In this document: positions 22,262-58,018 of the stretch, in pieces | Position numbering within the stretch: the first letter of the stretch is position 1 | Layout: each line of letters starts with the position of its first letter | Assembly: GCA_045580125.1 (NCBI GenBank) | Contig: JAZNNE010000022.1 | Location: forward strand, 30-64,029 | Reading direction: 5' to 3' | Length of the DNA: 64,000 bases | Source: Faecousia sp. | Lineage (GTDB): Bacteria > Bacillota > Clostridia > Oscillospirales > Oscillospiraceae | The notes under the pieces: model-generated | Told to the model about the DNA's origin: nothing | What the model saw: the letters and a program-made list of their open reading frames with translations, nothing else | The model's database searches: none | Made by a program: the position numbers and the translations under genes

Positions 22262-22660
22262 TTAATAATAACGGTAAGAAGCAGAGCTGCCGCTTGCAAG
22301 GCTGATGCCCAGCACCACAGCGATCAGTACATAAACCAGCACGATAGCTGCCACGATGAGCAGGGCGCACCAGTAGGAGCGGGCAAAGTTTCTGCGGTTG
22401 ATGTTCGCGCCGCTGCAGCTGAACACGATGAGGAAAACAAAACCGACAATAGGAACGCTGAACAGCAACTGCAGACCAAAGTATGCCCAGGGGCTCAGCG
22501 GACGGTTTTCCGGCGGGATCTCATACTTAACAGTCGGCGCTGCCTGAACAATATTCTGAACGGGCGCAGGGGCAACAAAGCTGGGTGCAGAAGATGTACC
22601 GCAGTTGGGGCATACCACCGCATTTTCGTCCATCTCAGTTCCGCAATTTTTACAAAACAT
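22262..22660 (-). CDS. Zinc-ribbon membrane protein
   Basis: MFCKNCGTEMDENAVVCPNCG, Pro-rich linker, two or three C-terminal TM helices; true start 22660. Confidence 0.85.
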   Translation of the reverse strand: MFCKNCGTEMDENAVVCPNCGTSSAPSFVAPAPVQNIVQAAPTVKYEIPPENRPLSPWAYFGLQLLFSVPIVGFVFLIVFSCSGANINRRNFARSYWCALLIVAAIVLVYVLIAVVLGISLASGSSASYRYY

Positions 22661-22699
22661 ATTTTTTACCTCTCTTTCATATTGGGATCGGCTGTTTTT

Positions 22700-22728
22700 A
22701 TTATACCAACCCCTGGTAGATTTTGCAA
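22700..22728 (-). promoter_or_regulatory. sigmaA promoter (leftward)
   Basis: TTGCAA-17 bp-TATAAT with TGG extension. Confidence 0.8.
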
Positions 22729-22770
22729 CATTAAATATTCCTTTTGCTACTGTTTTCCTTAGAAAAACAC

Positions 22771-22799
22771 TTGCGAACAGCCAAAATCTATGGTACAAT
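22771..22799 (+). promoter_or_regulatory. sigmaA promoter (rightward)
   Basis: TTGCGA-17 bp-TACAAT with TGG extension. Confidence 0.8.
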
Positions 22800-22832
22800 G
22801 TTAGCAACCAAACATATAAGGAGGATTCTCTT

Positions 22833-23354
22833 ATGTCTTTTTGTTCTAACTGCGGCAAATCCCTGACCGAAACCGATAAGTTCTGCAAGTACTGCGGCAC
22901 TGCAGCTCCCGCAACGGCCGAGCCCGTAACTCCCGTGGCTCCTGCTCCGCAGCCGACTCCCGTAACCCCCGTGACTCCCGTAGCGCAGCCCGCCCCTACC
23001 GCTGTGCAGACTGCTCCCGTTTACACTGTACCCAGCTGCTCCAAGAAGGCTAAGGCTCTGGGCTTTGTTGGTATGGGTCTGGGTATCGGCGGTCTGGTTT
23101 TTGCAGTTCTGGGCATTCTGTACACCTTCATCGGCTTGGCAGTGGACGAGATTCTTGGCTTTACCTATGCCTTTGTTTTTGGCATTTTCTCTATGCCCCT
23201 GAGCATTGTTGGCAAGATCCTGAGCGGCAACAGCCAGGATGCGGGCAATTGCTCCGCACCTCCCTCCGTCGGCTCCAAGCTGGGCCTCGCAGGCATCATC
23301 GTTACCGCTGTAATGCTGTTCATCGGCTTTATCTGCCTGGTTTCTATCGCTTAA
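22833..23354 (+). CDS. Zinc-ribbon membrane protein
   Basis: MSFCSNCGKSLTETDKFCKYCG, PVTPV-rich linker, three TM helices; AAGGAGG RBS before ATG 22833. Confidence 0.85.
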   Translation: MSFCSNCGKSLTETDKFCKYCGTAAPATAEPVTPVAPAPQPTPVTPVTPVAQPAPTAVQTAPVYTVPSCSKKAKALGFVGMGLGIGGLVFAVLGILYTFIGLAVDEILGFTYAFVFGIFSMPLSIVGKILSGNSQDAGNCSAPPSVGSKLGLAGIIVTAVMLFIGFICLVSIA

Positions 23355-23374
23355 TACGTACTGTTCCAAATTCG

Positions 23375-23407
23375 TTTCCGCCGGTCTGCTGCCGGCGGAA
23401 ACTGTTT
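23375..23407 (+). terminator. Probable terminator hairpin
   Basis: TTTCCGCCGG-tctgctg-CCGGCGGAAA followed by ACTGTTT. Confidence 0.55.
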
Positions 23408-23425: not shown

Positions 23426-25345
23426 ATGGACAGAGAGATCAAAAACATCATGCGCTGCAACCAGCAGCTGCTGGAAAGCTCGCCAAAAGATCTGAAATCG
23501 CTTTTCAATATCATATTCCGTTCGCCCGATTGCGTCTTGTGCGAAACCAACGACGGCTTTCGCATTCATACGCAAACCTACGGTCAGATCCATAGCCGGA
23601 TCTGTACCGCAGCAAATGCTCTGTATGCCAAGCTCGGCGCCACCCACAGCTACATCGCTCTGGAGATGGAAAACTCTCCGGACTGGATCGTAGCTTTTTG
23701 GGCTATTTTGATGAGCGGCAACAAGCCCTACCTGGTCAACACCCGCTATCCCGCGCACCTGAGCAACAGCATTCTCGGCACCCTGCAGGTGGAATACATT
23801 CTCTGCACCAAAGATACGCAGCTTTCCGGTCAGGCTATCCCTCTGTCCCAGCTGGCAGGAGATTTTCCCTGCGTCCCGGAGGATGTTTTTGAAAACGAAC
23901 TGGCTTTCTCCTCCTCTGCTACCTCTATGAAAGAGGTCATTTGCTTCTATACCGGTTTGCAAATTTCCGAGCAGGTCCTGAATTTCCCGCAAATCGTCAA
24001 AGAAAATCCCCAAATCGTCGCCCATTACAAGGGCAAGCTGAAGCAGCTGGCATTTCTGCCTTTTTACCACGTATTCGGTCTGTTTGCCGTATTTTTCTGG
24101 TTTACATCCCTTGGACGAACATTGGTTTTCCTGCCCGATTACAGTGCAGATTCCATTTTGAAAACCTGCCGACGTCATAAAGTTACCCATATCTTTGCAG
24201 TGCCCGCCCTTTGGCACACGGTTGAAAAGCAGCTTTCCTCCGAAGTCGCCAAGCTGGGCGACAAAAAACAGGCACAGCTGCAAAAATCCCTTGCATTTTT
24301 TACAACGCTTCAAAATCTTTTCCCCCGCTTGGGCGCTAAGTTGGCAAAGCGTTCCTTGCGGCAGATCACCGACAAGCTGTTCGGTCAGTCCGTTCTGTTT
24401 TGCATCAACGGTGGCAGCTATCTGCGGGACTCTGCGATGGCGCTGCTCAACGGCATCGGCTATAACCTGCACAACGGCTACGGTATGAGTGAAATCGGCA
24501 TAACCTCGGTGGAGCTGCGGCATCGTCCCAAGCACCGGAATCTGAATTCCATCGGTCACCCCTTCTCTGCGGTAGAATACCGCTTGGATGAAAACGGCAT
24601 TTTGCAGGTCAGAGGCGGAACCGTATGCACGAAAAAGCTGGTAAACGGCAGCAGCGTACAGCTGGACGACTGGTTCCACACCGGCGACCAGATGAAGTGC
24701 GTGGACGGTCATTACTACATTCTCGGTCGGCAAAGCGATGTCGTGATCGGTGAAAGCGGCGAGAACATCAATCCGGATATGATCGAAAAAGCATTTATTG
24801 TCCACGATGTTACGCAGCTATGTGTTCTGGGTCTGCCCGGTGAAAACGGTCAGGAGCTCTCGCTGGTGGCTCAAATCAGCCCCTACACCACCGGGAACCG
24901 CATTGAGCAGATCAAAAAGCGCATCTACCAAATCAACGAAACCTTCCCGCTTGCCATTGGCATCAAGCACTTCTATTTCACATACGACGAACTGGCATCT
25001 GCATCCGCCATCAAGGTCAGCAGAACGCAGTTGCTTCAAAAAATCGAGAATGCCCAGGTAAATCTGACTGCATTCCATCAATTCAAGCCCCGGGAAGCCC
25101 AGCAGGGCGAACAGTCCGCGCTGTTCCTGGCAGTTCGGAAGATTATCGCGCAGGTTTTGGTTGTCGACGAAGCGGATATTCTCGACGACACCCACATTTT
25201 CCACGATCTGGGCGCGACCAGCATCCAGTATTTTTCCATCCTTTCCGCATTGGCAGAGCAATTTTCCGTCTCCGCCTTTGACAGCAGCGATACCTATTGC
25301 TATACCCCCAGGGAAATCTGTGAATATTTAGAGAGAAAATTGTGA
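23426..25345 (+). CDS. AMP-binding (acyl-adenylate-forming) enzyme fused to a C-terminal carrier (ACP/T) domain
   Basis: FLPFYHVFG, NGYGMSE, WFHTGD, ILGRQSD..GENINP, IKVSR; C-terminal HDLGATS phosphopantetheine Ser motif. Confidence 0.88.
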   Translation: MDREIKNIMRCNQQLLESSPKDLKSLFNIIFRSPDCVLCETNDGFRIHTQTYGQIHSRICTAANALYAKLGATHSYIALEMENSPDWIVAFWAILMSGNKPYLVNTRYPAHLSNSILGTLQVEYILCTKDTQLSGQAIPLSQLAGDFPCVPEDVFENELAFSSSATSMKEVICFYTGLQISEQVLNFPQIVKENPQIVAHYKGKLKQLAFLPFYHVFGLFAVFFWFTSLGRTLVFLPDYSADSILKTCRRHKVTHIFAVPALWHTVEKQLSSEVAKLGDKKQAQLQKSLAFFTTLQNLFPRLGAKLAKRSLRQITDKLFGQSVLFCINGGSYLRDSAMALLNGIGYNLHNGYGMSEIGITSVELRHRPKHRNLNSIGHPFSAVEYRLDENGILQVRGGTVCTKKLVNGSSVQLDDWFHTGDQMKCVDGHYYILGRQSDVVIGESGENINPDMIEKAFIVHDVTQLCVLGLPGENGQELSLVAQISPYTTGNRIEQIKKRIYQINETFPLAIGIKHFYFTYDELASASAIKVSRTQLLQKIENAQVNLTAFHQFKPREAQQGEQSALFLAVRKIIAQVLVVDEADILDDTHIFHDLGATSIQYFSILSALAEQFSVSAFDSSDTYCYTPREICEYLERKL

Positions 25346-25346
25346 T

Positions 25347-25976
25347 ATGAACGAAAACATTTGGCTTGTCCGATTCTGCCTCGGCTTTGTAAAGCTTACC
25401 GGTCTTTTCCCGGCATGGCTGTATCTGAAGCCCCGGATCCGTCTTGCTTCCGGTGCAAAACGCCGGTTGCCCAAATCCTGCATTTTGGTCAGTAACCATA
25501 TCAGCCTGATGGATTTTGTGGTGTACCTGCTGGTATTTCCCTCCCGCACCATTCGGTTTTTGATCGCAGAGGTGCTGTATAACCGCGGCAAGCTCTTTGC
25601 GCGGTTTCTGAACCTGATCGGCGGCATTCGGGTGGATCGGGACGCCAAAAACTTCGACTTCGTTTCCCATTCCCTGACCGTGCTGGACAACGGTGGCGCC
25701 ATCGGCGTATTCCCCCAGGGTCGCCTGCCTGTCAAAGGACAGCATTTCCCCTTTACTGCCAGCACCGCATTTATCGCCCTGCGCACCGATGCGCCCATCA
25801 TTCCGGTATACACCGACGGCAATTACGGTCTTACCAAGCGTGCCGGCGTTGTTATCGGCGCCCCCCTCTATCTGCATGAGCATTGCTTGGACAACGTCAG
25901 CGAACAGGAACAGCTGACCCATCTGACAAAACTGCTGGAAGAGAAAGTTTACGCACTGAAAGAGGAACTGAACTGA
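25347..25976 (+). CDS. plsC: PlsC-type lysophospholipid acyltransferase
   Basis: SNHISLMD (HX4D), VFPQG, APIIPV. Confidence 0.85.
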   Translation: MNENIWLVRFCLGFVKLTGLFPAWLYLKPRIRLASGAKRRLPKSCILVSNHISLMDFVVYLLVFPSRTIRFLIAEVLYNRGKLFARFLNLIGGIRVDRDAKNFDFVSHSLTVLDNGGAIGVFPQGRLPVKGQHFPFTASTAFIALRTDAPIIPVYTDGNYGLTKRAGVVIGAPLYLHEHCLDNVSEQEQLTHLTKLLEEKVYALKEELN

Positions 25977-25978
25977 CT

Positions 25979-26617
25979 ATGGGCAAGACAAAGAAATTAT
26001 GCTTCCGCCACAATATGCCGGCTATGGATGCCGCGCGGCTTGTTTGTATGCCTTTGCTGCTGCTGTGGCGTATGAAGCGGCTGAATCCCGACGGCACAAA
26101 ATATACCGGCCGCATCCGCGGCGGTGCGATCGTTGCCGCCAATCACACCTCTTTTGCAGATCCCTTTCTTGTAGGTGTTGCCGTTTGGTACCGCCGGCTG
26201 TTTTTCCTTGCAGCCGAAGCAGTTATGGGAGGGAAACTGCGCACCTGGCTTCTTAAGGGCGTAGGCGCCATTAAGATCGACCGCAACTGCGCCGATATCG
26301 AAGCAATACGCAAATGCGTCAGCGTGCTGAAAAGCGGCTACCTGCTTTCCGTTTTTCCCCAAGGTGGCATCACCGGCGAGGATACGGTCTCGTCCATCAA
26401 ATCCGGCGCGATTCTGATGGCGCTGCAGGCGGGTGTTCCCATCGTACCGATGCACATCTGCCCTCCCAAGCACTGGTACAGCCGCCGGGTGGTCATTATC
26501 GGCAATACCGTCGATCCCAAAAATCATGTGGCAAACAAATTCCCCTCCACCAAGGACATCGAGAAGATCTCTCAGATCCTGATGGAGGAAATGAATCACT
26601 GTATGATATCTCAGTAA
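25979..26617 (+). CDS. plsC: PlsC-type lysophospholipid acyltransferase (second copy)
   Basis: ANHTSFAD, VFPQGG, IKSGAILMALQAGVPIVP; true start 25979. Confidence 0.85.
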   Translation: MGKTKKLCFRHNMPAMDAARLVCMPLLLLWRMKRLNPDGTKYTGRIRGGAIVAANHTSFADPFLVGVAVWYRRLFFLAAEAVMGGKLRTWLLKGVGAIKIDRNCADIEAIRKCVSVLKSGYLLSVFPQGGITGEDTVSSIKSGAILMALQAGVPIVPMHICPPKHWYSRRVVIIGNTVDPKNHVANKFPSTKDIEKISQILMEEMNHCMISQ

Positions 26618-26629
26618 GGAGCAAGCATT

Positions 26630-26872
26630 ATGCAAACACTGGAACGGTTGATCAAAGTCTTCAATGTTGTATTCGAAGACAGCATTGATATCAGCGCATT
26701 CAAGCCGGAAGCCTCTCTTCGTGAGGACCTTGGTATGAACTCCATCGGTCTTCTATATATGGCAATGGCCGTTGAAGAGGAATTCGGCATTAAGTTCAAT
26801 AACGACGATTTCGCTTCCATCTGCACTGTAGCAGATGTGGTTGCGTGCATCGAAAAGAAATGTCAGAGATAA
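26630..26872 (+). CDS. Stand-alone acyl carrier protein
   Basis: 80 aa, acidic, EDLGMNSIG motif, VEEEFGIKF, TVADV. Confidence 0.9.
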   Translation: MQTLERLIKVFNVVFEDSIDISAFKPEASLREDLGMNSIGLLYMAMAVEEEFGIKFNNDDFASICTVADVVACIEKKCQR

Positions 26873-27273
26873 GCTGGTCTGAAAAGACCCCTGTTTTCGG
26901 GGACATCGTCCGCACAAAGGTACAGTTTTATCATCACTACGGTATTTTTGTGTCTGAAAACGAGGTGATCCAGTTTGGTCTGCCGGACGATCCCTTTCGC
27001 CCCGCCTGCCAGATCCGTGTGATCAGCACAGACGTTATGACATTTCTGCAAGGCGGCGATCTGGAGGTCTTGACGCCCGATCGCAGCACCCGCAGTCAAA
27101 TGCGCAGTCCGGAGCAGATCGTATCCATCGCCCGCGGACGCCTTGGCGAAGACGGATATGATATTTTGCACAACAACTGCGAACACTTTGTAAATGACTG
27201 TGCCTTTGGAAAACCCCACTCCTCCTTTGTGCAGGACGTGCGGGAAAAACTGCGAAAAAAACTGGGAAAATAG
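26860..27273 (+). CDS. LRAT/PLAAT (permuted NlpC/P60) family acyltransferase or phospholipase
   Basis: N-terminal GDIV...YHHYGIF and C-terminal YDILHNNCEHF catalytic motifs. Confidence 0.85.
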   Translation: MSEISWSEKTPVFGDIVRTKVQFYHHYGIFVSENEVIQFGLPDDPFRPACQIRVISTDVMTFLQGGDLEVLTPDRSTRSQMRSPEQIVSIARGRLGEDGYDILHNNCEHFVNDCAFGKPHSSFVQDVREKLRKKLGK

Positions 27274-27284
27274 ACGTTTTCGTC

Positions 27285-27869
27285 TTATTCTCCCAGTATC
27301 TGTATGAAATAATCATCTACAACGCATAATTGCCGTTGTAGCGGCAGGATGTTGACTGCTTTCAAGTCGGTGATTCCGGTGCCGCATTTTTTGTAGTACG
27401 CCTCTTTGGCTGTCCAAATTTCAAAAAACCGCCGCAGGATGCTTTCATCGCAGCACAGCTGCTGCCAGGTTTCCTCCGCCCCTGCCGCCAGATATTCCAT
27501 CTCCTCCGGCACGCATACGTGCTTGCAAATGTTCAGTTTAATGGGTCGAATGCGCTCAATATCGATCCCCACCGGGGCATCGCTGATGGCGCACGCTACC
27601 ATTTGGTCGCAGTGGGATATGCTCACGTGCATTTCGCAGCCGGTGAGGTATGGCTGACCTTTGCTTGTGCAATGCAGCTTCGCAGAATCGGTATTCGCCT
27701 GCTTTTGCAGCAGTTCATAGACCAGACATTCCGCCGCCAAAGACCGTTTTCGGTCCTCTTCCCGGCGCAGGCGGTCGATACGCTCTTTTCTGGATGGCGA
27801 CAACTGCCGGTAAATGCATTGCAGCTGCGCCTCGGTATATTCTGTTATTTTACGGCAAGCCCAATGCAT
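27285..27869 (-). CDS. Sfp-type 4'-phosphopantetheinyl transferase
   Basis: KGQPYL, VSISH, VGIDIE, WTAKEAYYK..GTG. Confidence 0.93.
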   Translation of the reverse strand: MHWACRKITEYTEAQLQCIYRQLSPSRKERIDRLRREEDRKRSLAAECLVYELLQKQANTDSAKLHCTSKGQPYLTGCEMHVSISHCDQMVACAISDAPVGIDIERIRPIKLNICKHVCVPEEMEYLAAGAEETWQQLCCDESILRRFFEIWTAKEAYYKKCGTGITDLKAVNILPLQRQLCVVDDYFIQILGE

Positions 27870-27923: not shown

Positions 27924-27955
27924 GGTAATCATCTGAAACAAGGAGGCAATTGGAT

Positions 27956-28582
27956 ATGTGGATTGTATATTCCCTACTTGCGCTCCTGGCGATCATCATT
28001 ACCGTCATATTGGTATTGCCGGTAAAGGTGATCATAAAGAATGATAAGGATGACATTCTCATCCTGCGTTACCGGCTGCTTTTTAAAACCTACGGCGAAG
28101 ATCCGGACCCCAACGACCCCATTCTCAAGGCTCTGAAAAAAGCCGGCGGTATCGATCGGTTGGAAAAAGCCGCTGTGCAGCAAAACATCCAAACGGACGG
28201 TCTGCAGGAAACGATTACGGAAAGCTATTCCCTTTTGATCGACCTTTTGAAAGAACTGCTTTTCCTTCTAAAAAATTGTACGGTAACAAAGCTGGATATT
28301 CACATTCTCAGCGCCGGCGATGATCCTGCCCAGGCAGCCATCAACTACGGCATTTACCAGGCCGCGACCCACACGCTTCTGTCTGTGCTGGGTCAGTTCC
28401 TGAAAATCCGTAAGCGGGCCCGTAAAATCGACATTCGCTGCGATTTTAATGAGCCGGCTCCGGTCTTCCGCTATCACGTCGTCCTGGCAGTGCCCTTCGC
28501 CCGAGTGTTAGCCGCCTTCTGGCGTGCCACTATGGCAGAAGTCAAGCGCACCGCCGAGGAAACGAAAAATCAGCAAAAATGA
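27956..28582 (+). CDS. Membrane-anchored conserved hypothetical protein (DUF2953-like)
   Basis: N-terminal TM helix; DDPAQAAINYG and IDIRCDF segments resemble DUF2953 proteins (from memory). Confidence 0.6.
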   Translation: MWIVYSLLALLAIIITVILVLPVKVIIKNDKDDILILRYRLLFKTYGEDPDPNDPILKALKKAGGIDRLEKAAVQQNIQTDGLQETITESYSLLIDLLKELLFLLKNCTVTKLDIHILSAGDDPAQAAINYGIYQAATHTLLSVLGQFLKIRKRARKIDIRCDFNEPAPVFRYHVVLAVPFARVLAAFWRATMAEVKRTAEETKNQQK

Positions 28583-29544
28583 TCCAGCACCTGCTGCACG
28601 TGGGCAGCAACGGTCTGCTCTTTATCGCATAATATGGCGTGAGTGGCGCCCGGCTGCACGATCCGGCGGCACATTTCGCATTTCTCTGCAAATTTCTGCT
28701 GCACCTGATTGCATACGGTTTTGTCGTTTTCTGCGCTGATCATCAAAATCGGCGTGCGGATCTTTTTCAAAAATCTTCTGCTGGTCAGCCTGCCGCGCAA
28801 GCTCACAGACTGCTGTACCCAGCGAATGGTTTGCGGTGTGGTGCAATAGCAGGGGTTCTGGTGCCGCCGTTCCATATTGAGTTGGAAACGGGCACGGCTT
28901 CTGTCGTGGGCGCGCTCAAACGGATAATTGGGATCATATTCACCGGCTGTCCAGCTTTTCTTTTTCCCTCTGCCTGCCAGTATGTGCAATGTCATTGCCC
29001 CATAGGCAATGGGTATCGGTATGCCGTTGGTCAACGGCTGGATCATAGGCGCGGACAGCACCGCCTTTTGGAACGTGTCCGTATGCTCTGCCAGATACTG
29101 AGCTGCCACCGCACCGCCCATAGAATGGGCATACAAATACAGCGGTCCATCGGTAACCGGTCGCACAACATCGCAAATAAACTTGTGCAGATCCTTCCGG
29201 TAATCGGAAAAACGATCCACGTGGATTAGATCAAGTCGCTCCGTAAGTCTGCAGGATCTGCCGTGGCAACGCTGGTCGTAGAGGAATACATCGTAGCCCT
29301 GATTCAGCAAATACCAGGCAAACTCGTGATATTTTTCCGTAAATTCGCTAAGTCCGTGCAGAATGACCACCGCGCCGCGGCTGTCTTCTGCCTGAAAATA
29401 TTCGTAATAGAGCGATGCTCCGTCAAACCCTTCAAAATTGCCCGTCTTCCGGCACTGCAGCAACTGCTGCGTGATGGCAGTCATCTGCTCCCGAAAAGTT
29501 TCCTCGGGCAGAACAGAAAACTGATAACTAGGTTTGATTTTCAC
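28570..29544 (-). CDS. Lysophospholipase L2-like alpha/beta-hydrolase
   Basis: VILHGLSEFTEKY, YDQRCHGRS, YAHSMGG nucleophile elbow, LSAPM, AENDKTV, GATHAI; GTG start 29544 with GAGGTG RBS. Confidence 0.88.
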   Translation of the reverse strand: MKIKPSYQFSVLPEETFREQMTAITQQLLQCRKTGNFEGFDGASLYYEYFQAEDSRGAVVILHGLSEFTEKYHEFAWYLLNQGYDVFLYDQRCHGRSCRLTERLDLIHVDRFSDYRKDLHKFICDVVRPVTDGPLYLYAHSMGGAVAAQYLAEHTDTFQKAVLSAPMIQPLTNGIPIPIAYGAMTLHILAGRGKKKSWTAGEYDPNYPFERAHDRSRARFQLNMERRHQNPCYCTTPQTIRWVQQSVSLRGRLTSRRFLKKIRTPILMISAENDKTVCNQVQQKFAEKCEMCRRIVQPGATHAILCDKEQTVAAHVQQVLDHFC

Positions 29545-29576
29545 AAAATCACCTCTGCTTATAATTTCCAGAAAAG

Positions 29577-30527
29577 TTGGTGATAATCTTGATATCTGCA
29601 AAGAAATCTCGCTTCAAAAGGATATCGGTTATCATTATTGCCATTATTTTCTCTTTTTGTGCCGTTTCTCTGGTGGCAACAAAATTTGTTTACGACAGCA
29701 TTTTTGCCCGCTACGATCAGCCCGCGGACATTCCCCAAGCGCTTAACGCCACTGTGGAGCAGCGGCAAACCTGCCAATTCTCCTCCGGGGAGAATCTGCT
29801 GGCGGGCTATTATTACCGCGCAGCTCAGCCCAACCAAACCAACGCCCTGGTGGTGCTGGTTCCCGGCTTCCACGCCGGCGGGGACGACTATTTGTGGCAG
29901 ATCCACGAACTGCTGGAATACGGCTGGAACGTTTTCACCTTTGATACCACCGGCACGCTTCAATCCCAGGGCGACAGCCAAATCGGCTTTTCCCAATCCC
30001 TGCTGGATCTGGAGGCTGCCTTGGAATATATTCGGAATAACCAAAAATTCGGTCATTCCCAGCTCGTCCTGATGGGACACAGCCGGGGCGCGTATGCCGC
30101 CTGCTGCGCTTTGTCCCGGGAGCAGGATATTGCCGCCGTTGTTTCTGTCAGCGGTGTCAACAGTGCTATGGAGGCCATTATGCAAATGAGCGTCCAGGCG
30201 GTCGGTCCTGTCAGCTACGGTAACTACGGCTTTCTTTGGCTCTATCAGGTCTCCCTGTTCGGCGCCGACACCCTGAATCAGGACGCAGCCCAAGCCATTT
30301 CCGACAGCGACGTGCCTGTGCTTATGATCCACGGCACCCGCGATACGCAAATCCCAATGGACGACAGCTCCATTATTTCCTACAAAGAGCAAATTACCTC
30401 CACCGAGGTAGAATATCTTCTGTGCGATGCCGGGCATACAGATCTGCTGTACGATGCCGACGGCACAGCCAGTGACACACTCATCGCCTACGTTCACGAT
30501 TTCCTGCTTCGCAGCTTAAATAAATAA
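29577..30527 (+). CDS. Membrane-anchored alpha/beta-hydrolase
   Basis: N-terminal TM, VLVPGF, GHSRG elbow, IHGTRD, AGHTD; exact start uncertain. Confidence 0.82.
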   Translation: MVIILISAKKSRFKRISVIIIAIIFSFCAVSLVATKFVYDSIFARYDQPADIPQALNATVEQRQTCQFSSGENLLAGYYYRAAQPNQTNALVVLVPGFHAGGDDYLWQIHELLEYGWNVFTFDTTGTLQSQGDSQIGFSQSLLDLEAALEYIRNNQKFGHSQLVLMGHSRGAYAACCALSREQDIAAVVSVSGVNSAMEAIMQMSVQAVGPVSYGNYGFLWLYQVSLFGADTLNQDAAQAISDSDVPVLMIHGTRDTQIPMDDSSIISYKEQITSTEVEYLLCDAGHTDLLYDADGTASDTLIAYVHDFLLRSLNK

Positions 30528-30550: not shown

Positions 30551-31573
30551 ATGAATGCTATTTTGATACCGGCGTATGAACCGGATGCACAGCTGATCGC
30601 ATTGGCGAAGCAGCTGAAAGAGACAGGCTTCCTTGTGGTCATCGTCGACGACGGCAGCGGTCCTTCCTATCAGGATATTTTCGATGCGGCACGAGAATAT
30701 TCCCATATCCTTACCCACGGCAGAAACCGCGGCAAGGGCGCAGCTCTGAAAACCGGTATGCGCTATATCCGGGACCATCTGCCCCAGGTGGAAAATTTCA
30801 TCACCTGCGACGCCGACGGACAGCACCGTGTAGAGGATGTCCTGCGCGTTGAAAATCAATTAAATGCCGGTCATAAGTTCGTGCTGACGATGCGGCAGCT
30901 GCATAAGGATATTCCTTTGCGCTCCCAGGTGGGCAATTCCATGTCCCGGGTCGTTTATGCGCTGCTGACTAAGCGGTACCTGTCGGACAATCAGTCCGGT
31001 CTTCGCGGCTTCCACCGCTCTCATATCAACTGGATGATAAAGGTGGAAAAGGACAACTACGACTATGAAATGAACGTCCTCTACTATGCCGCCAAGAAGA
31101 GCATCCGCATTTGCACCCTCTCCATTGAAGCTATCTACATCAACAACAATCAGTCTTCGCATTTTCATCCGGTCAAGGATACCCTGCGGATCTACAAAAG
31201 CCTTTTCAAGCTGGCCAGCGGCTTATTTGTTGGATTTTTTGTGGCTGAGCTGTGCATCATTCTCACTTCGATTTTCCTTGGCTATGACCACCTGCTCATT
31301 TCCATTCCCAGTGTCGCACTGATTTCCTATCTTGTCAACATCGGTTTCAGTAAGTATTTTATGTTCCGCAATACCCACTGCCACGATTACCTGACCCTTT
31401 TGATCCACCAGATCATATCTTACATACTCTACACGCTGGGCTGCATCGTATTTTATTACGCCTGTCCCCAGATCCCGCTGTGGCTCAGCTTCAATATCGT
31501 ATTTATGATATGCCTTCCCCTGCGGTATTGGCTGCATAAATTCACCTTTATCGCCCTGCGGACCCACGAATAA
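30551..31573 (+). CDS. GT2 (polyprenyl-phosphate glycosyltransferase-like) fused to a GtrA-like membrane domain
   Basis: ILIPAYEP, VDDGSG, NRGKGAALKTG, CDADGQH, DNQSGLRGF, YEMNVL; four C-terminal TM helices. Confidence 0.85.
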   Translation: MNAILIPAYEPDAQLIALAKQLKETGFLVVIVDDGSGPSYQDIFDAAREYSHILTHGRNRGKGAALKTGMRYIRDHLPQVENFITCDADGQHRVEDVLRVENQLNAGHKFVLTMRQLHKDIPLRSQVGNSMSRVVYALLTKRYLSDNQSGLRGFHRSHINWMIKVEKDNYDYEMNVLYYAAKKSIRICTLSIEAIYINNNQSSHFHPVKDTLRIYKSLFKLASGLFVGFFVAELCIILTSIFLGYDHLLISIPSVALISYLVNIGFSKYFMFRNTHCHDYLTLLIHQIISYILYTLGCIVFYYACPQIPLWLSFNIVFMICLPLRYWLHKFTFIALRTHE

Positions 31574-31601: not shown

Positions 31602-31640
31602 CAAATCGTCAAAACAATGTTTTGACGATTTGTTTTTTAT
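31602..31640. terminator. Bidirectional terminator
   Basis: CAAATCGTCAAAACA-a-TGTTTTGACGATTTG plus a T tract, between convergent genes. Confidence 0.82.
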
Positions 31641-32614
31641 TTGCTTAATTCCTCTGCCACAGCTTGGGTAAAGCCTGCTTTTTCCAGACGGAAGGCTTGC
31701 TCAATGGAAGCAACCACCGTATCCGCATTGGCTTGTCCGTGCATTTTCAGCACAGTTTTCTTCGGTCCCAAGAATGTGGCGGCGCCGCGGGAATTGAAAT
31801 CAAAGGTCTCCAGCAGAGCTTGGCGGCATTTCTCCATTTCCGGCGTGCCGTTACCGATCCGCCGTACAATTTCTGCCGCAGCTTTGCCCACGGACTCTGC
31901 GCATTTCAGCAGGAGATTTCCGCTGAAACCGTCGGTAACGATGACGTCGGCGTAATCGCTGACCAGATCGCAGCCTTCCACATTGCCCACAAAGTTCAGA
32001 TCCAACTGACTGATGCGCTCATGCGCCTGCTGGATCAGGGCTGTTCCCTTTTGCCGTTCCTTGCCCACGCTCATCAAGCCGATCCGCGGACGCGCAATGC
32101 CGCAATAGCATTTTGTAAAGGCGTGACCCATTTTTGCAAACCGGACAAGATCATCCGGCGTACACTCAATATTTGCGCCGCAATCCACAAGACACAGCAA
32201 ATTCTCCCCGTTGCAGGGCAAAGCGCTCAGCAGCGCGGGGAATTTCAGTCCCGGCAGCAGACCCAGCCGGCAGATCGAGCCCACCAGCAGCGCGCCGGTA
32301 TTGCCTGCCGAGAGCATAACGCGGCAATCTGCATCATTTTTCAGGCAGCTGTAGGCCTTGACCATAGTCGTATCCTCAGCGCCGCCAAAAATGCAGGTGG
32401 GCGGGTCTTCGTTGCGGATATACTCGCAGGCATCCACGATCTCATATCGGGACGGATCGATACCGCGCTGCGTCATGATCTTCTGCAGCGCCTGCTCCGG
32501 TCCAATCAGAACCGGAAAGATATCCAAACCCTTTTCCAGCGCCATTGCCGCGCCGGTTACAATAGGTTCATAGCCGGCATCTGCACCCAGGGTGTCAATA
32601 ACGATCTTTGTCAT
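31637..32614 (-). CDS. plsX: Phosphate acyltransferase (acyl-ACP:phosphate transacylase)
   Basis: IVIDTLGAD, SAGNTGAL, DCGANIEC, GNVEG, DVIVTDGFSGNLLLK, GAATFLG, KMHG. Confidence 0.9.
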   Translation of the reverse strand: MTKIVIDTLGADAGYEPIVTGAAMALEKGLDIFPVLIGPEQALQKIMTQRGIDPSRYEIVDACEYIRNEDPPTCIFGGAEDTTMVKAYSCLKNDADCRVMLSAGNTGALLVGSICRLGLLPGLKFPALLSALPCNGENLLCLVDCGANIECTPDDLVRFAKMGHAFTKCYCGIARPRIGLMSVGKERQKGTALIQQAHERISQLDLNFVGNVEGCDLVSDYADVIVTDGFSGNLLLKCAESVGKAAAEIVRRIGNGTPEMEKCRQALLETFDFNSRGAATFLGPKKTVLKMHGQANADTVVASIEQAFRLEKAGFTQAVAEELSK

Positions 32615-32619
32615 AGTGC

Positions 32620-34257
32620 TTACTCCAAAGAAATAATGAAGTCATAAACGCCCTGCTTGCCGTCTACAAAGCCGGTATCCACCAGAGGATATTCCGTCTG
32701 CATAAACGCCTGCAGCTGCTGCGCCTCATCTTCGGACACACTTTCTCCATAGAAGACGATGACAACATCCTTCGGTTCCGCAGTCATCAGCTTGGTGATC
32801 AGCGCCTTGGCCGTTTCCAGATTGCTGCTGCCGGTGGAGAGTACGTGATGCCCGTCCAGACCGATATAGTCGCCCTTTTTGATATTGATGCCGTCCAGAT
32901 GCGCATCACGGACAGCGGTGGTTACGTATCCGGTGGTAACCTGACCCAGGTTCATAGACATATCTTCCACCAGTTCTTCCACCGTATCGCTCCACAGATT
33001 CATCATAGAAAGTGCAGAATAGCCCTCAGCAATGGACTTCGTGGGGATCACCCGCACATCGGAATCGGTATAGGCGTCTGCAGCCTGATTGGCTGTCAGA
33101 ACGATATTGGAGTTGTTGGGCAGCACCACAATATGCTCCGCATTGACGCTTTTGAACGCGTCCAAAAATGCGTTTACGGAAGGATTGTTGGTCTGACCGC
33201 CGTCAATGATGTATGTGGCGCCGATTTCACGGAAATAGTCCTGAATGCCCGCGCCGGATGCCACGGCAACAACTGCGTATTTTTCTTTCTTGCGCTCGAC
33301 CTGATTCTGGCTGTGCTGGACAGACATATTTTCGATCTTGACGCTGACGAACTCGCCAAACTGTCTTCCATAGCCCAGAACTTCTTCCGGAGCGAAGGTA
33401 TGGATATGGATCTTGACAATGCCGTCGTTATGGACGGAAACGATCGAATCGCCCATTGCCTCCAAAGGCTTGGTAAAGCTCTGCAGATCAAATGCAGCCA
33501 AGTCGGTTTTGTAGTTCATCAGCTGCAGCACAAACTCCGTGCAGTAGCCGTATTCCAGCCGGGTATCCGGACCGAAATCGCTGTCGCAGGCAGCAGGTGC
33601 CGACCAATCCGCAACATCTGTGCTGTCTGTAATTTCTTCGCCGTGCAGGCAGGCGCAAATACCCTCGACAAAGCACACCAGTCCTGCACCGCCGCTGTCA
33701 ACCACATTGGCCTCTTTCAGCACCGGCAGCAATTCCGGTGTTCTTTTCAGCGTAGCGGTCATCACATCCCGCAGGGCATCAAAGCCCTCTTCAAAAGAGC
33801 TGAAGGAGGTTGCATTGTCTGCCAGATATTCCGAAGCTTCCCGGATAACTGTCAGAATTGTGCCTTCTGTGGGGGTGATAATGGAATGATATGCGTCCTC
33901 AGTAGCGCAGGCAAAGGCTTGCGCCATATCCGCAAAGGTTACAGTCTCTTTTTCAGAAAAGCCGCGGTAAAGGCCGTGAACAAACTGGGAGAAAATCACG
34001 CCCGAATTGCCTCTTGCAGACAGCAGAATGCCTTTGGACAGGCCTTTCATATACTGCCCGACGTTGGTCTGCTCCGGGTCGGCAGCCTTAAGACCGCCAC
34101 CGAAGGTCATCGCCATATTGGCACCCGTATCGCCATCCGGTACAGGGAACACATTCAGGTTGTTGATCGTCTCCATATTTCTCGTCAAGTTGCTGTATCC
34201 GCTGAGAAACAGCTTGTGAAGACCGATACCGTCCAACGAATTTGACATATTACTCAT
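32620..34257 (-). CDS. fakA: DAK2-domain fatty acid kinase catalytic subunit
   Basis: INNLNVFPVPDGDTGANM, ARGNSGVIFSQ, EGTILTV, VDSGGAG, YGYCTEF, KIHIHT, GGQTNNPS. Confidence 0.95.
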   Translation of the reverse strand: MSNMSNSLDGIGLHKLFLSGYSNLTRNMETINNLNVFPVPDGDTGANMAMTFGGGLKAADPEQTNVGQYMKGLSKGILLSARGNSGVIFSQFVHGLYRGFSEKETVTFADMAQAFACATEDAYHSIITPTEGTILTVIREASEYLADNATSFSSFEEGFDALRDVMTATLKRTPELLPVLKEANVVDSGGAGLVCFVEGICACLHGEEITDSTDVADWSAPAACDSDFGPDTRLEYGYCTEFVLQLMNYKTDLAAFDLQSFTKPLEAMGDSIVSVHNDGIVKIHIHTFAPEEVLGYGRQFGEFVSVKIENMSVQHSQNQVERKKEKYAVVAVASGAGIQDYFREIGATYIIDGGQTNNPSVNAFLDAFKSVNAEHIVVLPNNSNIVLTANQAADAYTDSDVRVIPTKSIAEGYSALSMMNLWSDTVEELVEDMSMNLGQVTTGYVTTAVRDAHLDGINIKKGDYIGLDGHHVLSTGSSNLETAKALITKLMTAEPKDVVIVFYGESVSEDEAQQLQAFMQTEYPLVDTGFVDGKQGVYDFIISLE

Positions 34258-36279: not shown

Positions 36280-37236
36280 ATGGAGTACCTGATTCCCCTG
36301 GCTATCGCGCTGGCTGTTTTGCTGTCAGGTGGCCTGATTTTTATGCTGATTTACACATATCCCATCTCGAAACGGGTCTACGAAGACCAGCTGGTACGCA
36401 CATCCCCGGAAAAGTGGGGCTACGCCTGCACCTTCCCTGACGATGCTGAGCAAGTGCAAATGTGGCACGACGGCATTGCGTGGATGGAACAAAACCGGGA
36501 TCGCATTACCGAGCTGCAAATCGAAAACGAAGGTCTGCAGCTGTTTGGTCAGTATTTTGACTTTGGCGCGGATCGCTGCGTGATCATTCTGCCCGGTCGC
36601 TGCGAAAGCCTGATTTACTCCTACTATTTTGCGCCCCCTTATGAAAAGGCCGGCTTCAACGTTCTCGTGATCGATACGCGCTGCCACGGCAGAAGCGACG
36701 GCAAATACAACACCATCGGTCTGCAGGAAAGCAAGGATGTCCTGGCCTGGGCAAAGCTCGCCCACGAACAGTTCGGCAATCAGGAGATCTACTTCCACGG
36801 CATCTGCATCGGCACCTCCTCGGGTCTGTTTGCCCTGACCTCCAAAAATAGCCCCAGCTATCTGCGGGGTCTGGTCACGGAAGGCTGCTACGTTTCCTTC
36901 CCTGAAACCTTCAAGCGCCATATGATGGCGCTGAAGCGCCCGCTGTTCCCGGTGCTGCAGCTGGTTATGATGCATATCTATCGCCACACCGGCACCAATG
37001 TCTACCGCTACAAGCCCATTTCCGCTATTCGCCGGCTGAAGCCCGACTGCCGTGTTCTATTCTTATACGGCGAGCAGGACATCTTTTCCATTCCGGCGAA
37101 AAGCCGCAAATTATTCGCCGCCTGCTCCTCTCAGGACAAGAAGCTGATTTGGTTCAGCCGCGGCGGCCATTCCCATCTGCGTATCAACAACACCGAAGCC
37201 TACGACCGGGCAATTATTGATTTTTTAGGGAAATAA
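36280..37236 (+). CDS. Membrane-anchored alpha/beta-hydrolase with a Cys at the nucleophile elbow
   Basis: N-terminal TM, IILPG, IDTRCHGRSDG, FHGICIG, YGEQD, GGHSH. Confidence 0.8.
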   Translation: MEYLIPLAIALAVLLSGGLIFMLIYTYPISKRVYEDQLVRTSPEKWGYACTFPDDAEQVQMWHDGIAWMEQNRDRITELQIENEGLQLFGQYFDFGADRCVIILPGRCESLIYSYYFAPPYEKAGFNVLVIDTRCHGRSDGKYNTIGLQESKDVLAWAKLAHEQFGNQEIYFHGICIGTSSGLFALTSKNSPSYLRGLVTEGCYVSFPETFKRHMMALKRPLFPVLQLVMMHIYRHTGTNVYRYKPISAIRRLKPDCRVLFLYGEQDIFSIPAKSRKLFAACSSQDKKLIWFSRGGHSHLRINNTEAYDRAIIDFLGK

Positions 37237-55722: not shown

Positions 55723-57081
55723 ATGACGGATAAACCTTGCTACAATTTAAGTCCCACGCAAGACGTGGTATATATGCAAAGCCAGTACAGTTTATATAAA
55801 AGAGTGATCAACATCCTTTCCTCCATCGCCATTGATGAGGAAGTGGATTTCCAGCTTATGAATCAGGCTTTCAAGCTTCTGGTTGAACGAAATGACTGCC
55901 TCAGAATCAGATTCTTCAAAAAGAGAGGAAAGCTGATGCAGTACTTTGGCGATTCCGGAAATAAGATCAAGAATGTGCCTGTTTTGTCCTTTGAAACCAA
56001 GCAGCAGCAAGACGCCTTTATCGATAAGGTTAGAAAAAAAGCCATTGACTATATGCACGGCGTTGTCATCGAGCCTTATTTTATTCACACCTATGACAAT
56101 CGTTATATGGTGTTTATCAAGATCTGCCATTTGGTTAGTGACCTTTATGGAATCAACGTTTTGTATACGGATCTTTTAAACGTGTATCATGCGCTGAAGA
56201 AGGGCGAGCCGTTGCCCCCTGCCCCGGCAAGTTTCGAGGAGATTATTAAAAAGGATATTGAAAAGAACGCCAACAGCAATGTGACGGAGAAACATCTGGA
56301 GTACTTCACCGATCTGCTCACCAATAATCCCGAGCCGTTCTATGCCGGTATTCACGGCCCCAACAATCCCATTTGGCAGAAGCAGCTCAAAAAACACCAA
56401 CGGGGCATGCCCATTTTCCTTGTCCGTAACAGTACGCAGACCTACCGCCACAAGATCGACAAGGATCTGGTAGAGAAGGTGCTAAGCTATTGTCAGAACA
56501 ATGTATGCTCACCTGCGAATTTGTTTTTCTGCGCAAGCTCCGTAGCCCTGGCTAAGCTAAACGGAAACCTCAAGAACATAATGCCCATCGGTCTTTATCA
56601 TTGCCGCCATACCGCACAGGAAAAGCACTGTGCAGGTCCCAAGGTGCAAAGTGCTGCTTGTTATACCAAGATCGATTATGCCCTTTCCTTTGAGGATAAT
56701 CTGAAGGCATACTCAGCTGCGCAGTACGGTCTTTACAAACATATCAAGTTTAAAGACAGAGATTTTGAGGCCTTAGTGCACAACATCTACCGCTCTTCAC
56801 CTCTTACGATGTACTATTCGTTTTCCTACTCGCTCTTACCCGTTGATATGCCCGATGGCGTGGAGTTTAATGTGTATACCAACGGTAATGGCGCGCTTCC
56901 TGCCTATGTCGTTCAGGTTTTGAATGCCAAGACCAAAGAAGTTGAGATGGCTTACGATGTACAGACCAGGATCACCAGTGAAGATGATGTCAGCAAATTC
57001 CATACCTACTATCTGAATGTACTGAAGCAGGTGCTGGACGATCCCGGCATCAAAGTTGCGGATATTCAGCTTTCGCTGTAA
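55723..57081 (+). CDS. Stand-alone NRPS-type condensation domain protein
   Basis: YNLSPTQ, LVERNDCLRIRF, ICHLVSDLYG (HHxxxDG variant); no A or T domain in this ORF. Confidence 0.82.
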   Translation: MTDKPCYNLSPTQDVVYMQSQYSLYKRVINILSSIAIDEEVDFQLMNQAFKLLVERNDCLRIRFFKKRGKLMQYFGDSGNKIKNVPVLSFETKQQQDAFIDKVRKKAIDYMHGVVIEPYFIHTYDNRYMVFIKICHLVSDLYGINVLYTDLLNVYHALKKGEPLPPAPASFEEIIKKDIEKNANSNVTEKHLEYFTDLLTNNPEPFYAGIHGPNNPIWQKQLKKHQRGMPIFLVRNSTQTYRHKIDKDLVEKVLSYCQNNVCSPANLFFCASSVALAKLNGNLKNIMPIGLYHCRHTAQEKHCAGPKVQSAACYTKIDYALSFEDNLKAYSAAQYGLYKHIKFKDRDFEALVHNIYRSSPLTMYYSFSYSLLPVDMPDGVEFNVYTNGNGALPAYVVQVLNAKTKEVEMAYDVQTRITSEDDVSKFHTYYLNVLKQVLDDPGIKVADIQLSL

Positions 57082-57112
57082 TGACATATTTTCAAAAAGC
57101 GTTCTATATATG

Positions 57113-57147
57113 CAGCACCCCAAAAGCGTTTCGCTTTTGGGGTGCTG
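57113..57147. terminator. Bidirectional terminator hairpin
   Basis: CAGCACCCCAAAAGC-gtttc-GCTTTTGGGGTGCTG between convergent genes. Confidence 0.78.
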
Positions 57148-57166
57148 TTCATTTTATCATGTGGGT

Positions 57167-58018
57167 TTATAAAATCTTTCTTCTGGTTAATTTTTGCGTT
57201 ATTTTATTAAAGTTGGTAATAATCACGTCGCCGGTTAAGCGCAGACGGCTATCTTTATTATTTTTGTTAATGACCTCTATATTGCGGTAAATTTGTTCCA
57301 GATCATCATAGCCATCGCCAAAATACTCTTTTAAGATGTTTTTCGTTCTTTCATAACCGACTTCCAACATATTATCAATGCTGTCCTGTTGGAACACAAA
57401 TGATTGTCTTAACGAAGTTTCGTCCGGGAAGGTTATTTTAATAATTTTGTTGTCAAACTCTGTGCTTTCAAATTTATAGCAAATATCATCAAAATATATA
57501 CAGATGATATAATCTATCTCACGATCTAAAAGCGGAAAAACGGGAATGTTGTCGACCACAGCTCCATCAAAATATCCCGAGCCGTCAACCTGAACGGAAC
57601 GGTTGCAAACAGGTAACGCAACCGCTGCTTTTAAGTATAGCGGTATTTTATCTTTGTCCACCTTGGATAAATCTTTATATGCGATATTTTTGGCGCTTAA
57701 CTCAAGCAAAGAACAGTAAAATTCAGAAGATATTGAATCGTTGGGATCATACAGATTGATGATATCTTGTTGCAAAATATCGCTTCTAAGGAATCGGGTC
57801 AAGCCCATCTTCTTGCCATTGCTGCAAATCTCACTCCACATTTGCTTTGCCCGCTCAAGCTTGTTTGTCATATAGGCATAACCATTGAGCGTGCCTACGG
57901 AAGCGCAAGATACATATTTAATTTCTTCAGACGGTATAATTTCGCTTAATGCATATAAAGCGCCAAGCTGAAGTGCGCCTTTAGCCATTCCTCCGGCCAA
58001 TACAAGTCCTATATTCAT
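57167..58018 (-). CDS. Patatin-like phospholipase
   Basis: LAGGMAKGA glycine loop, CASVG nucleophile elbow, YFDGAVVDNIP (DGA/G motif). Confidence 0.88.
   Translation of the reverse strand: MNIGLVLAGGMAKGALQLGALYALSEIIPSEEIKYVSCASVGTLNGYAYMTNKLERAKQMWSEICSNGKKMGLTRFLRSDILQQDIINLYDPNDSISSEFYCSLLELSAKNIAYKDLSKVDKDKIPLYLKAAVALPVCNRSVQVDGSGYFDGAVVDNIPVFPLLDREIDYIICIYFDDICYKFESTEFDNKIIKITFPDETSLRQSFVFQQDSIDNMLEVGYERTKNILKEYFGDGYDDLEQIYRNIEVINKNNKDSRLRLTGDVIITNFNKITQKLTRRKIL

Follow-up and report, generated by a model that had tools for sequence, protein, structure and literature searches.

A predicted LRAT/PLAAT-family thiol enzyme in a carrier-protein operon of fatty-acid-auxotrophic Clostridia

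The window, a stretch of 64,000 nucleotides from Faecousia sp. [quoted passage not shown] The ligase matches PF00501 (E 3.6e-34) and, at residues 570-635, PF00550 (Pfam). Its best NCBIfam matches are long-chain fatty-acid ligases; compared by sequence with the PDB, it finds generic ANL enzymes only, e.g., 4-chlorobenzoyl-CoA ligase (E about 1e-12), and these matches are uninformative on its substrate. The best NCBIfam match of PlsC1 is the acyltransferase part of PRK08633 (acyl-[ACP]--phospholipid O-acyltransferase, positions 419-556), and its PDB match is PlsC of T. maritima (5kym, E 1.3e-7). All Aas-type NCBIfam matches in the operon stay under the equivalog cut-offs, and the operon ACP reaches none of the NCBIfam equivalog cut-offs for housekeeping AcpP. 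The ATG of LRAT lies 13 nt inside the 3' end of the ACP gene, with an in-frame GTG at 26845. Beyond the phosphopantetheinyl transferase (PPTase) gene that converges on LRAT, the neighborhood includes plsX and fakA, followed by two DegV/FakB genes. The latter were assigned through the DegV Pfam family of their orthologues in two related loci (L001, L002). Judging from these assignments, plsX, fakA and the DegV/FakB genes appear to form a module for the activation of exogenous fatty acids that adjoins the operon.

Table 1. Features of the operon and its surroundings, with positions in the window.
Feature	Positions	Strand	Details
Terminator-like hairpin	23374-23402		12-bp stem; closes the preceding gene and separates the operon from it
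AMP-binding ligase (ANL superfamily) with C-terminal carrier domain	23426-25345	+	Operon gene 1; carrier serine in LGATSI
PlsC-type (LPLAT) acyltransferase 1	25347-25976	+	HX4D motif NHISLMD; PF01553, E 5.9e-16
PlsC-type acyltransferase 2	25979-26617	+	HX4D motif NHTSFAD; PF01553, E 9.8e-21
Free-standing ACP	26630-26872	+	80 aa; phosphopantetheine Ser38 in LGMNSI (26741-26743); PF00550, E 5.1e-10
Predicted LRAT/PLAAT-fold thiol enzyme	26860-27273	+	137 aa, soluble; PF04970 match
Predicted LRAT triad, His26	26935-26937	+	
Predicted LRAT triad, Gln38	26971-26973	+	
Predicted LRAT triad, nucleophile Cys107	27178-27180	+	
Sfp-type 4'-phosphopantetheinyl transferase (PPTase)	27285-27869	-	Convergent with LRAT, 11-nt gap; PF01648, E 1.1e-14, and PF22624
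DUF2953-like membrane protein	27950-28582	+	Pfam
Alpha/beta hydrolase, lysophospholipase/Hydrolase_4 type	28570-29601	-	Pfam
Alpha/beta hydrolase, lysophospholipase/Hydrolase_4 type	29577-30527	+	Pfam
GT2 glycosyltransferase	30551-31573	+	Pfam
plsX	31637-32614	-	FA_synthesis Pfam family of orthologues in L001, L002
fakA	32620-34257	-	Dak2/FakA-like Pfam family of orthologues in L001, L002
Lone NRPS condensation domain	55723-57081		PF00668, E 5.9e-27; next to a patatin gene

A preliminary description, made from the letters alone, had seen in LRAT a minimal 137-aa domain with HHYGIF and NNCEHF motifs that overlaps the ACP stop and contains neither a transmembrane segment nor a signal peptide. 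The present data bear out each of these points: the motifs are read in the translation at residues 25-30 and 105-110, and no transmembrane segment or signal peptide is found in the protein, whose maximum Kyte-Doolittle 19-residue mean is 0.82. The protein matches PF04970 (LRAT) with E 3.2e-19 and 69.8 bits over profile positions 4-119 of 120 (Pfam, gathering cut-off 24.3 bits), a sequence match that is far beyond chance. NCBIfam holds no model that matches it, and close homologues carry the NCBI label 'lecithin retinol acyltransferase family protein'. A PDB sequence search returns PLAAT/HRASLS proteins only (E 4e-6 to 7e-4), namely PLAAT3 (4dot, 4fa0, 7zom), PLAAT2 (4dpz) and PLAAT4 (7zot). 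The AlphaFold2 model, built on 39 homologues, has a pLDDT of 85.9 and a pTM of 0.80. When it is compared with the PDB by Foldseek, the top 7 structures are all N-domains of PLAAT2/3/4 (probability 1.0, target TM 0.66-0.82), the best ranks being held by the catalytic domains of PLAAT4/3/2 (TM 0.72-0.82); MepS/Spr, classical NlpC/P60 hydrolases, are listed only at E about 1. The C-terminus is modeled as a basic amphipathic helix (residues 122-135). The pI of the whole protein is 6.2 (clade median 6.3), without an overall basic character that would complement an acidic ACP.

In the alignments of the PDB sequence search, His23 of PLAAT3 falls on His26 of LRAT and Cys113 on Cys107, and the permuted order is present, the H-box His lying N-terminal to the nucleophile Cys of the NCEHF motif. 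The third position of the PLAAT3 triad (C-H-H, His35) is occupied by Gln38, and a second His is lacking there. Hence the earlier assignment as an LRAT/PLAAT Cys-His enzyme stands for the family and for His26 and Cys107, and has to be corrected at the third triad residue. Among 39 sequences, down to 46% identity, no change occurs at H26, N105, N106, C107, E108, H109 or F110, and at least 90% keep Q38; one distant clade member has His at this position. With a polar residue retained at position 38, as in other NlpC/P60 enzymes, catalysis is plausible, although the clade departs from the eukaryotic triad. On sequence and model, the protein is a genuine member of the LRAT/PLAAT family that appears to be catalytically competent, with an intact predicted Cys-His-Gln triad.

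Relatives were sought in one genome per species (185,579 species), and 442 stretches encode one. The gene context was analyzed at species level for the best 80 of these 442 loci, which come from Faecousia/Oscillospiraceae, Acutalibacteraceae, Ruminococcus, Lachnospiraceae and Christensenella-like MAGs. The core of ligase~carrier, PlsC, PlsC, ACP and LRAT is present in every one of the 80 loci with enough flank, down to 47% LRAT identity. A random context of the homologues, which the preliminary description had named as evidence against its reading, is the opposite of what is found in these best loci, where the core is invariant. In 21 loci PlsC1 and PlsC2 are joined in a single ORF of 422-451 aa. 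Wherever both genes occur, ACP directly precedes LRAT (84/84 loci); the distance from the ACP stop to the LRAT start is -4 to +4 nt in 72 of the 84, with ATGA or TAATG-type overlaps, and at most 10 nt in the majority of the other 12. This closeness of stop and start indicates translational coupling. The flank is less constant: the DUF2953-like gene, the hydrolases and GT2 keep the same order in L001, L002 and most loci whose LRAT identity exceeds about 55% and are lost in more distant ones, and the outer flank (hydrolases, GT2, plsX, fakA) is retained solely in closer relatives. The PPTase gene of the relatives is convergent downstream, divergent upstream, or beyond the fetched flank. LRAT is rare overall. 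It occurs in 3/400 genomes of the class and 5/201 genomes of the family; four of these five, including the window genome, also encode ligase~carrier, and the fifth (G466) has three other LRAT-domain ORFs.

Several loci depart from this arrangement. One genome (G511, locus L098) has a four-gene variant of ligase, PlsC, PlsC and ACP without LRAT anywhere in the genome; the ligase/PlsC/ACP chemistry can thus do without LRAT, which is accessory to it in the manner of an editing enzyme. Locus L089 is larger and consists of ligase~carrier, an MFS permease, PlsC, PlsC, a second ligase, ACP and an LRAT::PPT fusion. The same gene set together with DegV, FakA and an alpha/beta hydrolase is found in L100 and L101, with a patatin-like phospholipase additionally in L100. 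The second ligase of these three loci is missing from the window operon, and an orthologue is absent from the genome. The MFS permease is likewise absent from the window operon, and a 47%-identical homologue lies on another contig (C59) of the same genome.

The C-terminus of LRAT in relatives is fused to a domain orthologous to the window PPTase. Searched exhaustively with HMMER, 1.84 billion cluster representatives (50% identity) yield 2,099 relatives. Among the best 150 of these, 85 are 300-380 aa and 19 are 250-299 aa long, with the LRAT domain at residues about 2-130, and only 29 have 160 aa or fewer. All seven long representatives that were scanned (N-terminal LRAT, roughly 335 aa) contain a C-terminal ACPS (Sfp-type PPTase) domain. 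The LRAT::PPTase fusion is the majority form of the bacterial clade (about two thirds of the best 150 representatives, by length), and the window holds the split version. The catalytic residues are intact in free and fused proteins alike. Operons of the fusion type have the order ligase, ACP, LRAT::PPT (L004, L085, L089, L100, L101). Since the two domains are fused, it is plausible that they dock to one and the same carrier. The data tie LRAT functionally to the free ACP and the PPTase, and the link to a carrier protein drawn by the preliminary description is strengthened by the invariant ACP neighbor, whose stop overlaps the LRAT start, in 80 species-level loci and by the PPTase fusion in most of the clade. 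Fusion and adjacency denote a functional link; the bond attacked by LRAT is given by neither.

The window PPTase is the sole PF01648 match in its genome (G000). Most operon genomes likewise have a single PPTase, and two of them (G398, G478) have no PPTase other than the LRAT::PPT fusion; the lack of a second PPTase, like the absence of FASII, is read from MAGs. All carriers of the cell probably depend on the operon PPTase. The window genome has four: a housekeeping-like ACP (contig C85), DltC with dltA and dltB (C13), and the two operon carriers. The genome has 1.54 Mb and is 94% complete. No ketoacyl synthase (PF00109) is found in it, whereas all 14 control genomes give a match. At E <= 1e-30, the enzyme is present in 4/48 operon-bearing genomes versus 112/201 genomes sampled from the same family (Fisher p = 5e-10, without correction for phylogeny, the background being one family and the operon genomes spanning several). 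Two species of the same genus without the operon possess FabF. The operon belongs to fatty-acid-auxotrophic Clostridia. In the absence of a ketoacyl synthase, short acyl-ACPs cannot be elongated and are therefore dead ends.

These features suggest a carrier-protein-dependent system for the salvage of fatty acids and lysolipids in FASII-less Clostridia. The ligase would load scavenged fatty acids on its own carrier domain, and probably also on the ACP, and both PlsC-type enzymes would then move them to glycerolipid acceptors. Two PlsC enzymes, the absence of FASII and the Fak, PlsX, MFS and lipase neighbors point to membrane-lipid salvage or remodeling. Within this system LRAT may be a cytoplasmic Cys acyl-enzyme dedicated to the operon ACP that edits or off-loads acyl-S-ACP by hydrolysis, a reading that we hold tentatively, at a probability of roughly 0.4, as the most likely one. 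Cys107, activated by His26 and oriented by Gln38, would attack the acyl-S-phosphopantetheine thioester of the ACP to give an acyl-Cys107 intermediate. This intermediate would most likely be resolved by water, making the enzyme an editing or off-loading thioesterase and a functional analogue of the type II thioesterases. Wrong acyl groups, e.g., short chains installed from acyl-CoA by a promiscuous Sfp-type PPTase, would be stripped and the carrier would thereby stay free for long-chain fatty acids. It is established that acyl-CoAs can serve Sfp-type PPTases as donors of acyl-phosphopantetheine, and PLAAT enzymes pass through a covalent acyl-Cys intermediate that is readily hydrolyzed. For a papain-fold enzyme working on an acyl-ACP, BtrH provides a precedent (PMC10318531). 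Hydrolytic editing is favored because of this acyl loading, the dead-end nature of short acyl-ACPs, the solubility of LRAT, the variant of G511 and the ease with which the PLAAT acyl-enzyme is hydrolyzed. We infer both the ACP-bound acyl groups as substrate and hydrolysis, not transfer, as outcome. Some observations speak against proofreading: LRAT is confined to one operon type, is not placed beside other carrier systems and may be an integral pathway step, and editing thioesterases do not usually accompany their ACP in a strict 1:1 manner. Against an acyl-ACP substrate, the hallmark substrates of LRAT and PLAAT enzymes are phospholipid esters, not thioesters.

The main rival to the editing reading is transacylation, which we consider unlikely. 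Cys107 would accept an acyl chain from a phospholipid, either of the membrane or scavenged, and pass it to the holo-ACP thiol without ATP, or act in reverse, and the lysolipid would be re-acylated by PlsC in a Lands-type cycle. Phospholipid esters as donors would be in keeping with the family, fold and triad fit, and another loading route would be useful to the free ACP of the window, which has no ligase of its own. FASII-less cells, moreover, cannot tailor acyl chains by synthesis. The ACP coupling and the PPTase fusion fit transacylation equally well, but two-ligase operons retain LRAT despite a dedicated ACP ligase, a membrane-binding segment is lacking in LRAT, patatin and alpha/beta hydrolases of the larger variants already take care of deacylation, and the step from oxygen ester to thioester is energetically uphill. 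It is rather unlikely that the bacterial clade as a whole is an ATP-independent phospholipid:ACP transacylase with a private ACP, which would move acyl chains via acyl-Cys107 between phospholipids of the membrane or of the host and the phosphopantetheine thiol and, together with the ligase and two PlsC enzymes, would make up a complete carrier-based Lands cycle for FASII-less gut bacteria. If this reading of the clade were true, the eukaryotic PLAAT and LRAT enzymes would descend from ACP-dependent bacterial enzymes and would have lost the carrier later. A plain phospholipase A or lysophospholipase that acts independently of ACP is quite improbable. Such an enzyme would cleave scavenged or damaged phospholipids and feed the fatty acids to the ligase and Fak, with the adjacency of ACP and PPTase reflecting co-regulation. 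By default PLAAT enzymes show PLA1/2 activity, and the neighborhood is full of lipid hydrolases and fatty-acid activation genes. However, the constant position of LRAT right after ACP with stop/start overlap and the PPTase fusion as the majority form of the clade would stay unexplained, and a soluble cytoplasmic LRAT would be away from the imported lipid, for which other lipases are already there.

Equally improbable is an acyl-ACP-dependent acyltransferase, the idea of the preliminary description with ACP as the donor, in which the amine or hydroxyl group of a lipid head, an amino acid or a small molecule would accept the acyl chain from Cys107 to give an N- or O-acyl product. Both O- and N-acyl transfer are performed by LRAT and PLAAT enzymes. 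A precedent for a papain-fold ACP:amine acyltransferase is BtrH, the papain-like ACP:aminoglycoside acyltransferase of butirosin biosynthesis (PMC10318531). BtrH and Cys enzymes of the RifF/arylamine N-acetyltransferase (NAT) type share with LRAT the Cys-His papain superfamily and the use of acyl groups from carrier-protein or CoA thioesters, but they belong to other papain-like families (BtrH_N, PF14399, and the NAT fold) that are unpermuted and act in antibiotic pathways on amine acceptors. The ACP coupling of LRAT fits an acyltransferase, and the two carriers of the operon would allow more than one product. Yet the operon already has two PlsC-type acyltransferases, no acceptor-making gene is conserved with LRAT, the G511 variant dispenses with LRAT, and the amide-forming condensation domain of the genome is rare among operon genomes. 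The retinoid-like acceptors envisaged by the preliminary description find no trace of support, the neighbors indicating membrane-lipid salvage instead; its route to host-active N-acyl lipids likewise has no support and is, for this protein, pure speculation. An activity as peptidoglycan amidase, peptidase or conflict toxin, as in other clades of NlpC/P60, the superfamily that includes LRAT, is highly improbable. The permuted relatives Tox-Act1 and TseH are T6SS toxins (PMC12994826), but the protein has no signal peptide, secretion and immunity genes are absent, the lipid operon context is invariant and the closest matches in fold and sequence are PLAATs, with MepS/Spr far lower. The amidase or toxin reading was rejected on location, context and fold ranking.

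Human PLAAT1-5 (HRASLS) and LRAT share with the window protein PF04970, the circularly permuted NlpC/P60 fold, the order of His before Cys, the NCEHF nucleophile and a similar domain size. By analogy, a covalent acyl-Cys intermediate would be expected in the window protein too. Identity is about 20-24%, His35 of the PLAAT triad is replaced by Gln38, and the C-terminal membrane anchor of PLAAT1-5 and LRAT is absent. In contrast to the human enzymes, the bacterial LRAT is translationally coupled to ACP, usually fused to a PPTase and placed in a ligase/PlsC operon. Its donor is likely an acyl-S-carrier, as opposed to the phosphatidylcholine used by human PLAAT and LRAT. With the type II thioesterases of NRPS/PKS clusters, LRAT would share a role in carrier editing after promiscuous Sfp-type priming, and these too are cluster-encoded and accessory. 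The likeness is one of analogy only: type II thioesterases are alpha/beta-hydrolase Ser enzymes (Ser-His-Asp), whereas LRAT is a papain-like Cys enzyme of the PLAAT fold and not a member of their family. We know of no type II thioesterase fused to a PPTase. The Tox-Act1, TseH and YiiX clades have the permuted catalytic core and lipid targets in common with LRAT but are secreted T6SS toxins or separate clades (PMC12994826).

The operon as a whole may be compared with LplT-Aas of E. coli, a system for the transport and re-acylation of lysophospholipids (PMC11416262). LplT-Aas and PRK08633 (MFS-PlsC-AMP-ligase fusions) have in common with the operon a ligase of the acyl-ACP-synthetase type, PlsC-type acyltransferases and ACP, and the operon variants L089, L100 and L101 also include an MFS permease. 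The larger variants, with MFS, FakA/DegV, patatin and second ligase, resemble a split LplT/Aas system. Unlike LplT-Aas, the operon is divided into separate genes with duplicated acyltransferases and carriers, and relies on dedicated carriers and a PPTase rather than on a borrowed housekeeping ACP. It is also Gram-positive and FASII-less, and its LRAT enzyme is without a counterpart in LplT-Aas.

To our knowledge, PLAAT/LRAT enzymes are known almost only from animals and always described as acting on membrane phospholipids. In animals their roles include vitamin A storage, N-acyl-PE formation, organelle degradation and service as viral host factors. Surveys of papain-like and of permuted NlpC/P60 proteins describe the LRAT clade via its mammalian members only (PMC10318531, PMC12994826), and the latter presents no bacterial member as characterized (PMC12994826). 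In the literature, no publication was found that mentions LRAT together with a phosphopantetheinyl transferase, nor any study of the ligase/PlsC/ACP/LRAT operon. The assignment of LRAT to its family is already in automatic annotation, and the new part is its carrier-protein embedding. A clade that is locked to ACP and mostly fused to a PPTase points to thioester/carrier-protein chemistry undescribed for the LRAT/PLAAT family. The operon marks several hundred uncultured species of gut and rumen Clostridia that lack fatty-acid synthesis, and it therefore probably helps these abundant organisms to make their membranes out of dietary or host lipids. Such membrane building bears on their cultivation and on lipid exchange in the gut.

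The only amide-forming enzyme near the operon is the lone NRPS condensation domain (Table 1). Such domains are used in fatty-acid-amide pathways of gut Clostridia (OaaC; PMC13310621), and this one could in principle use acyl-ACP from the operon; no tie between it and LRAT was found in this analysis. As a general consumer of acyl-ACP it was rejected, being present in only 7-9 of 48 operon genomes, and owing to this rarity amide formation is not the general output of the operon. Close copies occur in seven of the 48, with two further distant matches, and the 81-88% identity of these copies even in distant genomes suggests that the gene is mobile.

No ketoacyl synthase (PF00109) match is found anywhere in the Faecousia sp. 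genome, and only one PPTase is encoded there, the Sfp-type enzyme at the LRAT operon. This gene content suggests fatty-acid auxotrophy and the lack of an AcpS. The genome also carries a housekeeping-like ACP gene, whose neighbors are hsp33, dnaX and recR. Because the PPTase is the sole one present, it must prime DltC and this housekeeping-like ACP as well, unless the 6% of the genome that the assembly does not cover encodes an AcpS.

Within the operon, the two PlsC genes form a single ORF of 422-451 aa in 21 relatives (loci L017, L021, L023-L026, L029, L032, L034-L036, L039, L042, L044, L047, L050, L051, L056, L063, L072, and L077). This fusion argues that the two acyltransferases would work jointly, either on one substrate or in successive steps. 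Most related loci have homologues of the zinc-ribbon membrane proteins upstream of the ligase gene. In many loci from Acutalibacteraceae, a second type occurs downstream of LRAT.

The LRAT clade includes further architectures: a metagenomic protein of 1,125 aa (P0123) with about 11 tandem LRAT domains (PF04970, 898 bits), and a 507-aa protein (P0248) in which the LRAT domain is joined to a long coiled-coil repeat region. In the Foldseek search with the LRAT model, the PLAAT hits are interspersed with a respiratory-chain protein, 8iuf_E7, which is part of supercomplex I+III2+IV from Euglena gracilis and scores an E value of 3.8e-4 with a query TM of 0.62. ACP subunits occur in complex I.

Features outside the operon (coordinates in the window, which is C22:30-64029, or on other contigs, C, of the same genome)
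Feature	Position	Remarks
Zinc-ribbon membrane proteins	window 22605-23354 and 22262-22900	low-complexity Pro/Ala/Val linkers; immediately upstream of operon
Alpha/beta hydrolase	window 36280-37236	
Lone NRPS condensation-domain protein, 452 aa	within window 55723-58018	convergent with patatin-like phospholipase gene
Patatin-like phospholipase	window 57167-58018	convergent with condensation-domain gene
MFS permease homologue	C59:36586-37992	47% identity to operon-linked permease of locus L089; outside operon here
Second PlsX-like gene	C43:19889-20842	32% identity
Housekeeping-like ACP	C85:43242-43577	

Copies of the condensation-domain gene (81-88% identity) are sparse, occurring in only 7 of the 48 operon-bearing genomes, yet they reach distant ones, and for this reason the gene looks horizontally mobile. 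The alpha/beta hydrolase may belong to the same lipid-salvage system as the operon, since a 42%-identical homologue (L100:8811-9794) sits inside the extended operon of genome G509, with fakA on one side and a patatin gene on the other. The hydrolase at window 36280-37236 has been flagged as carrying a Cys at the position of the nucleophile Ser.
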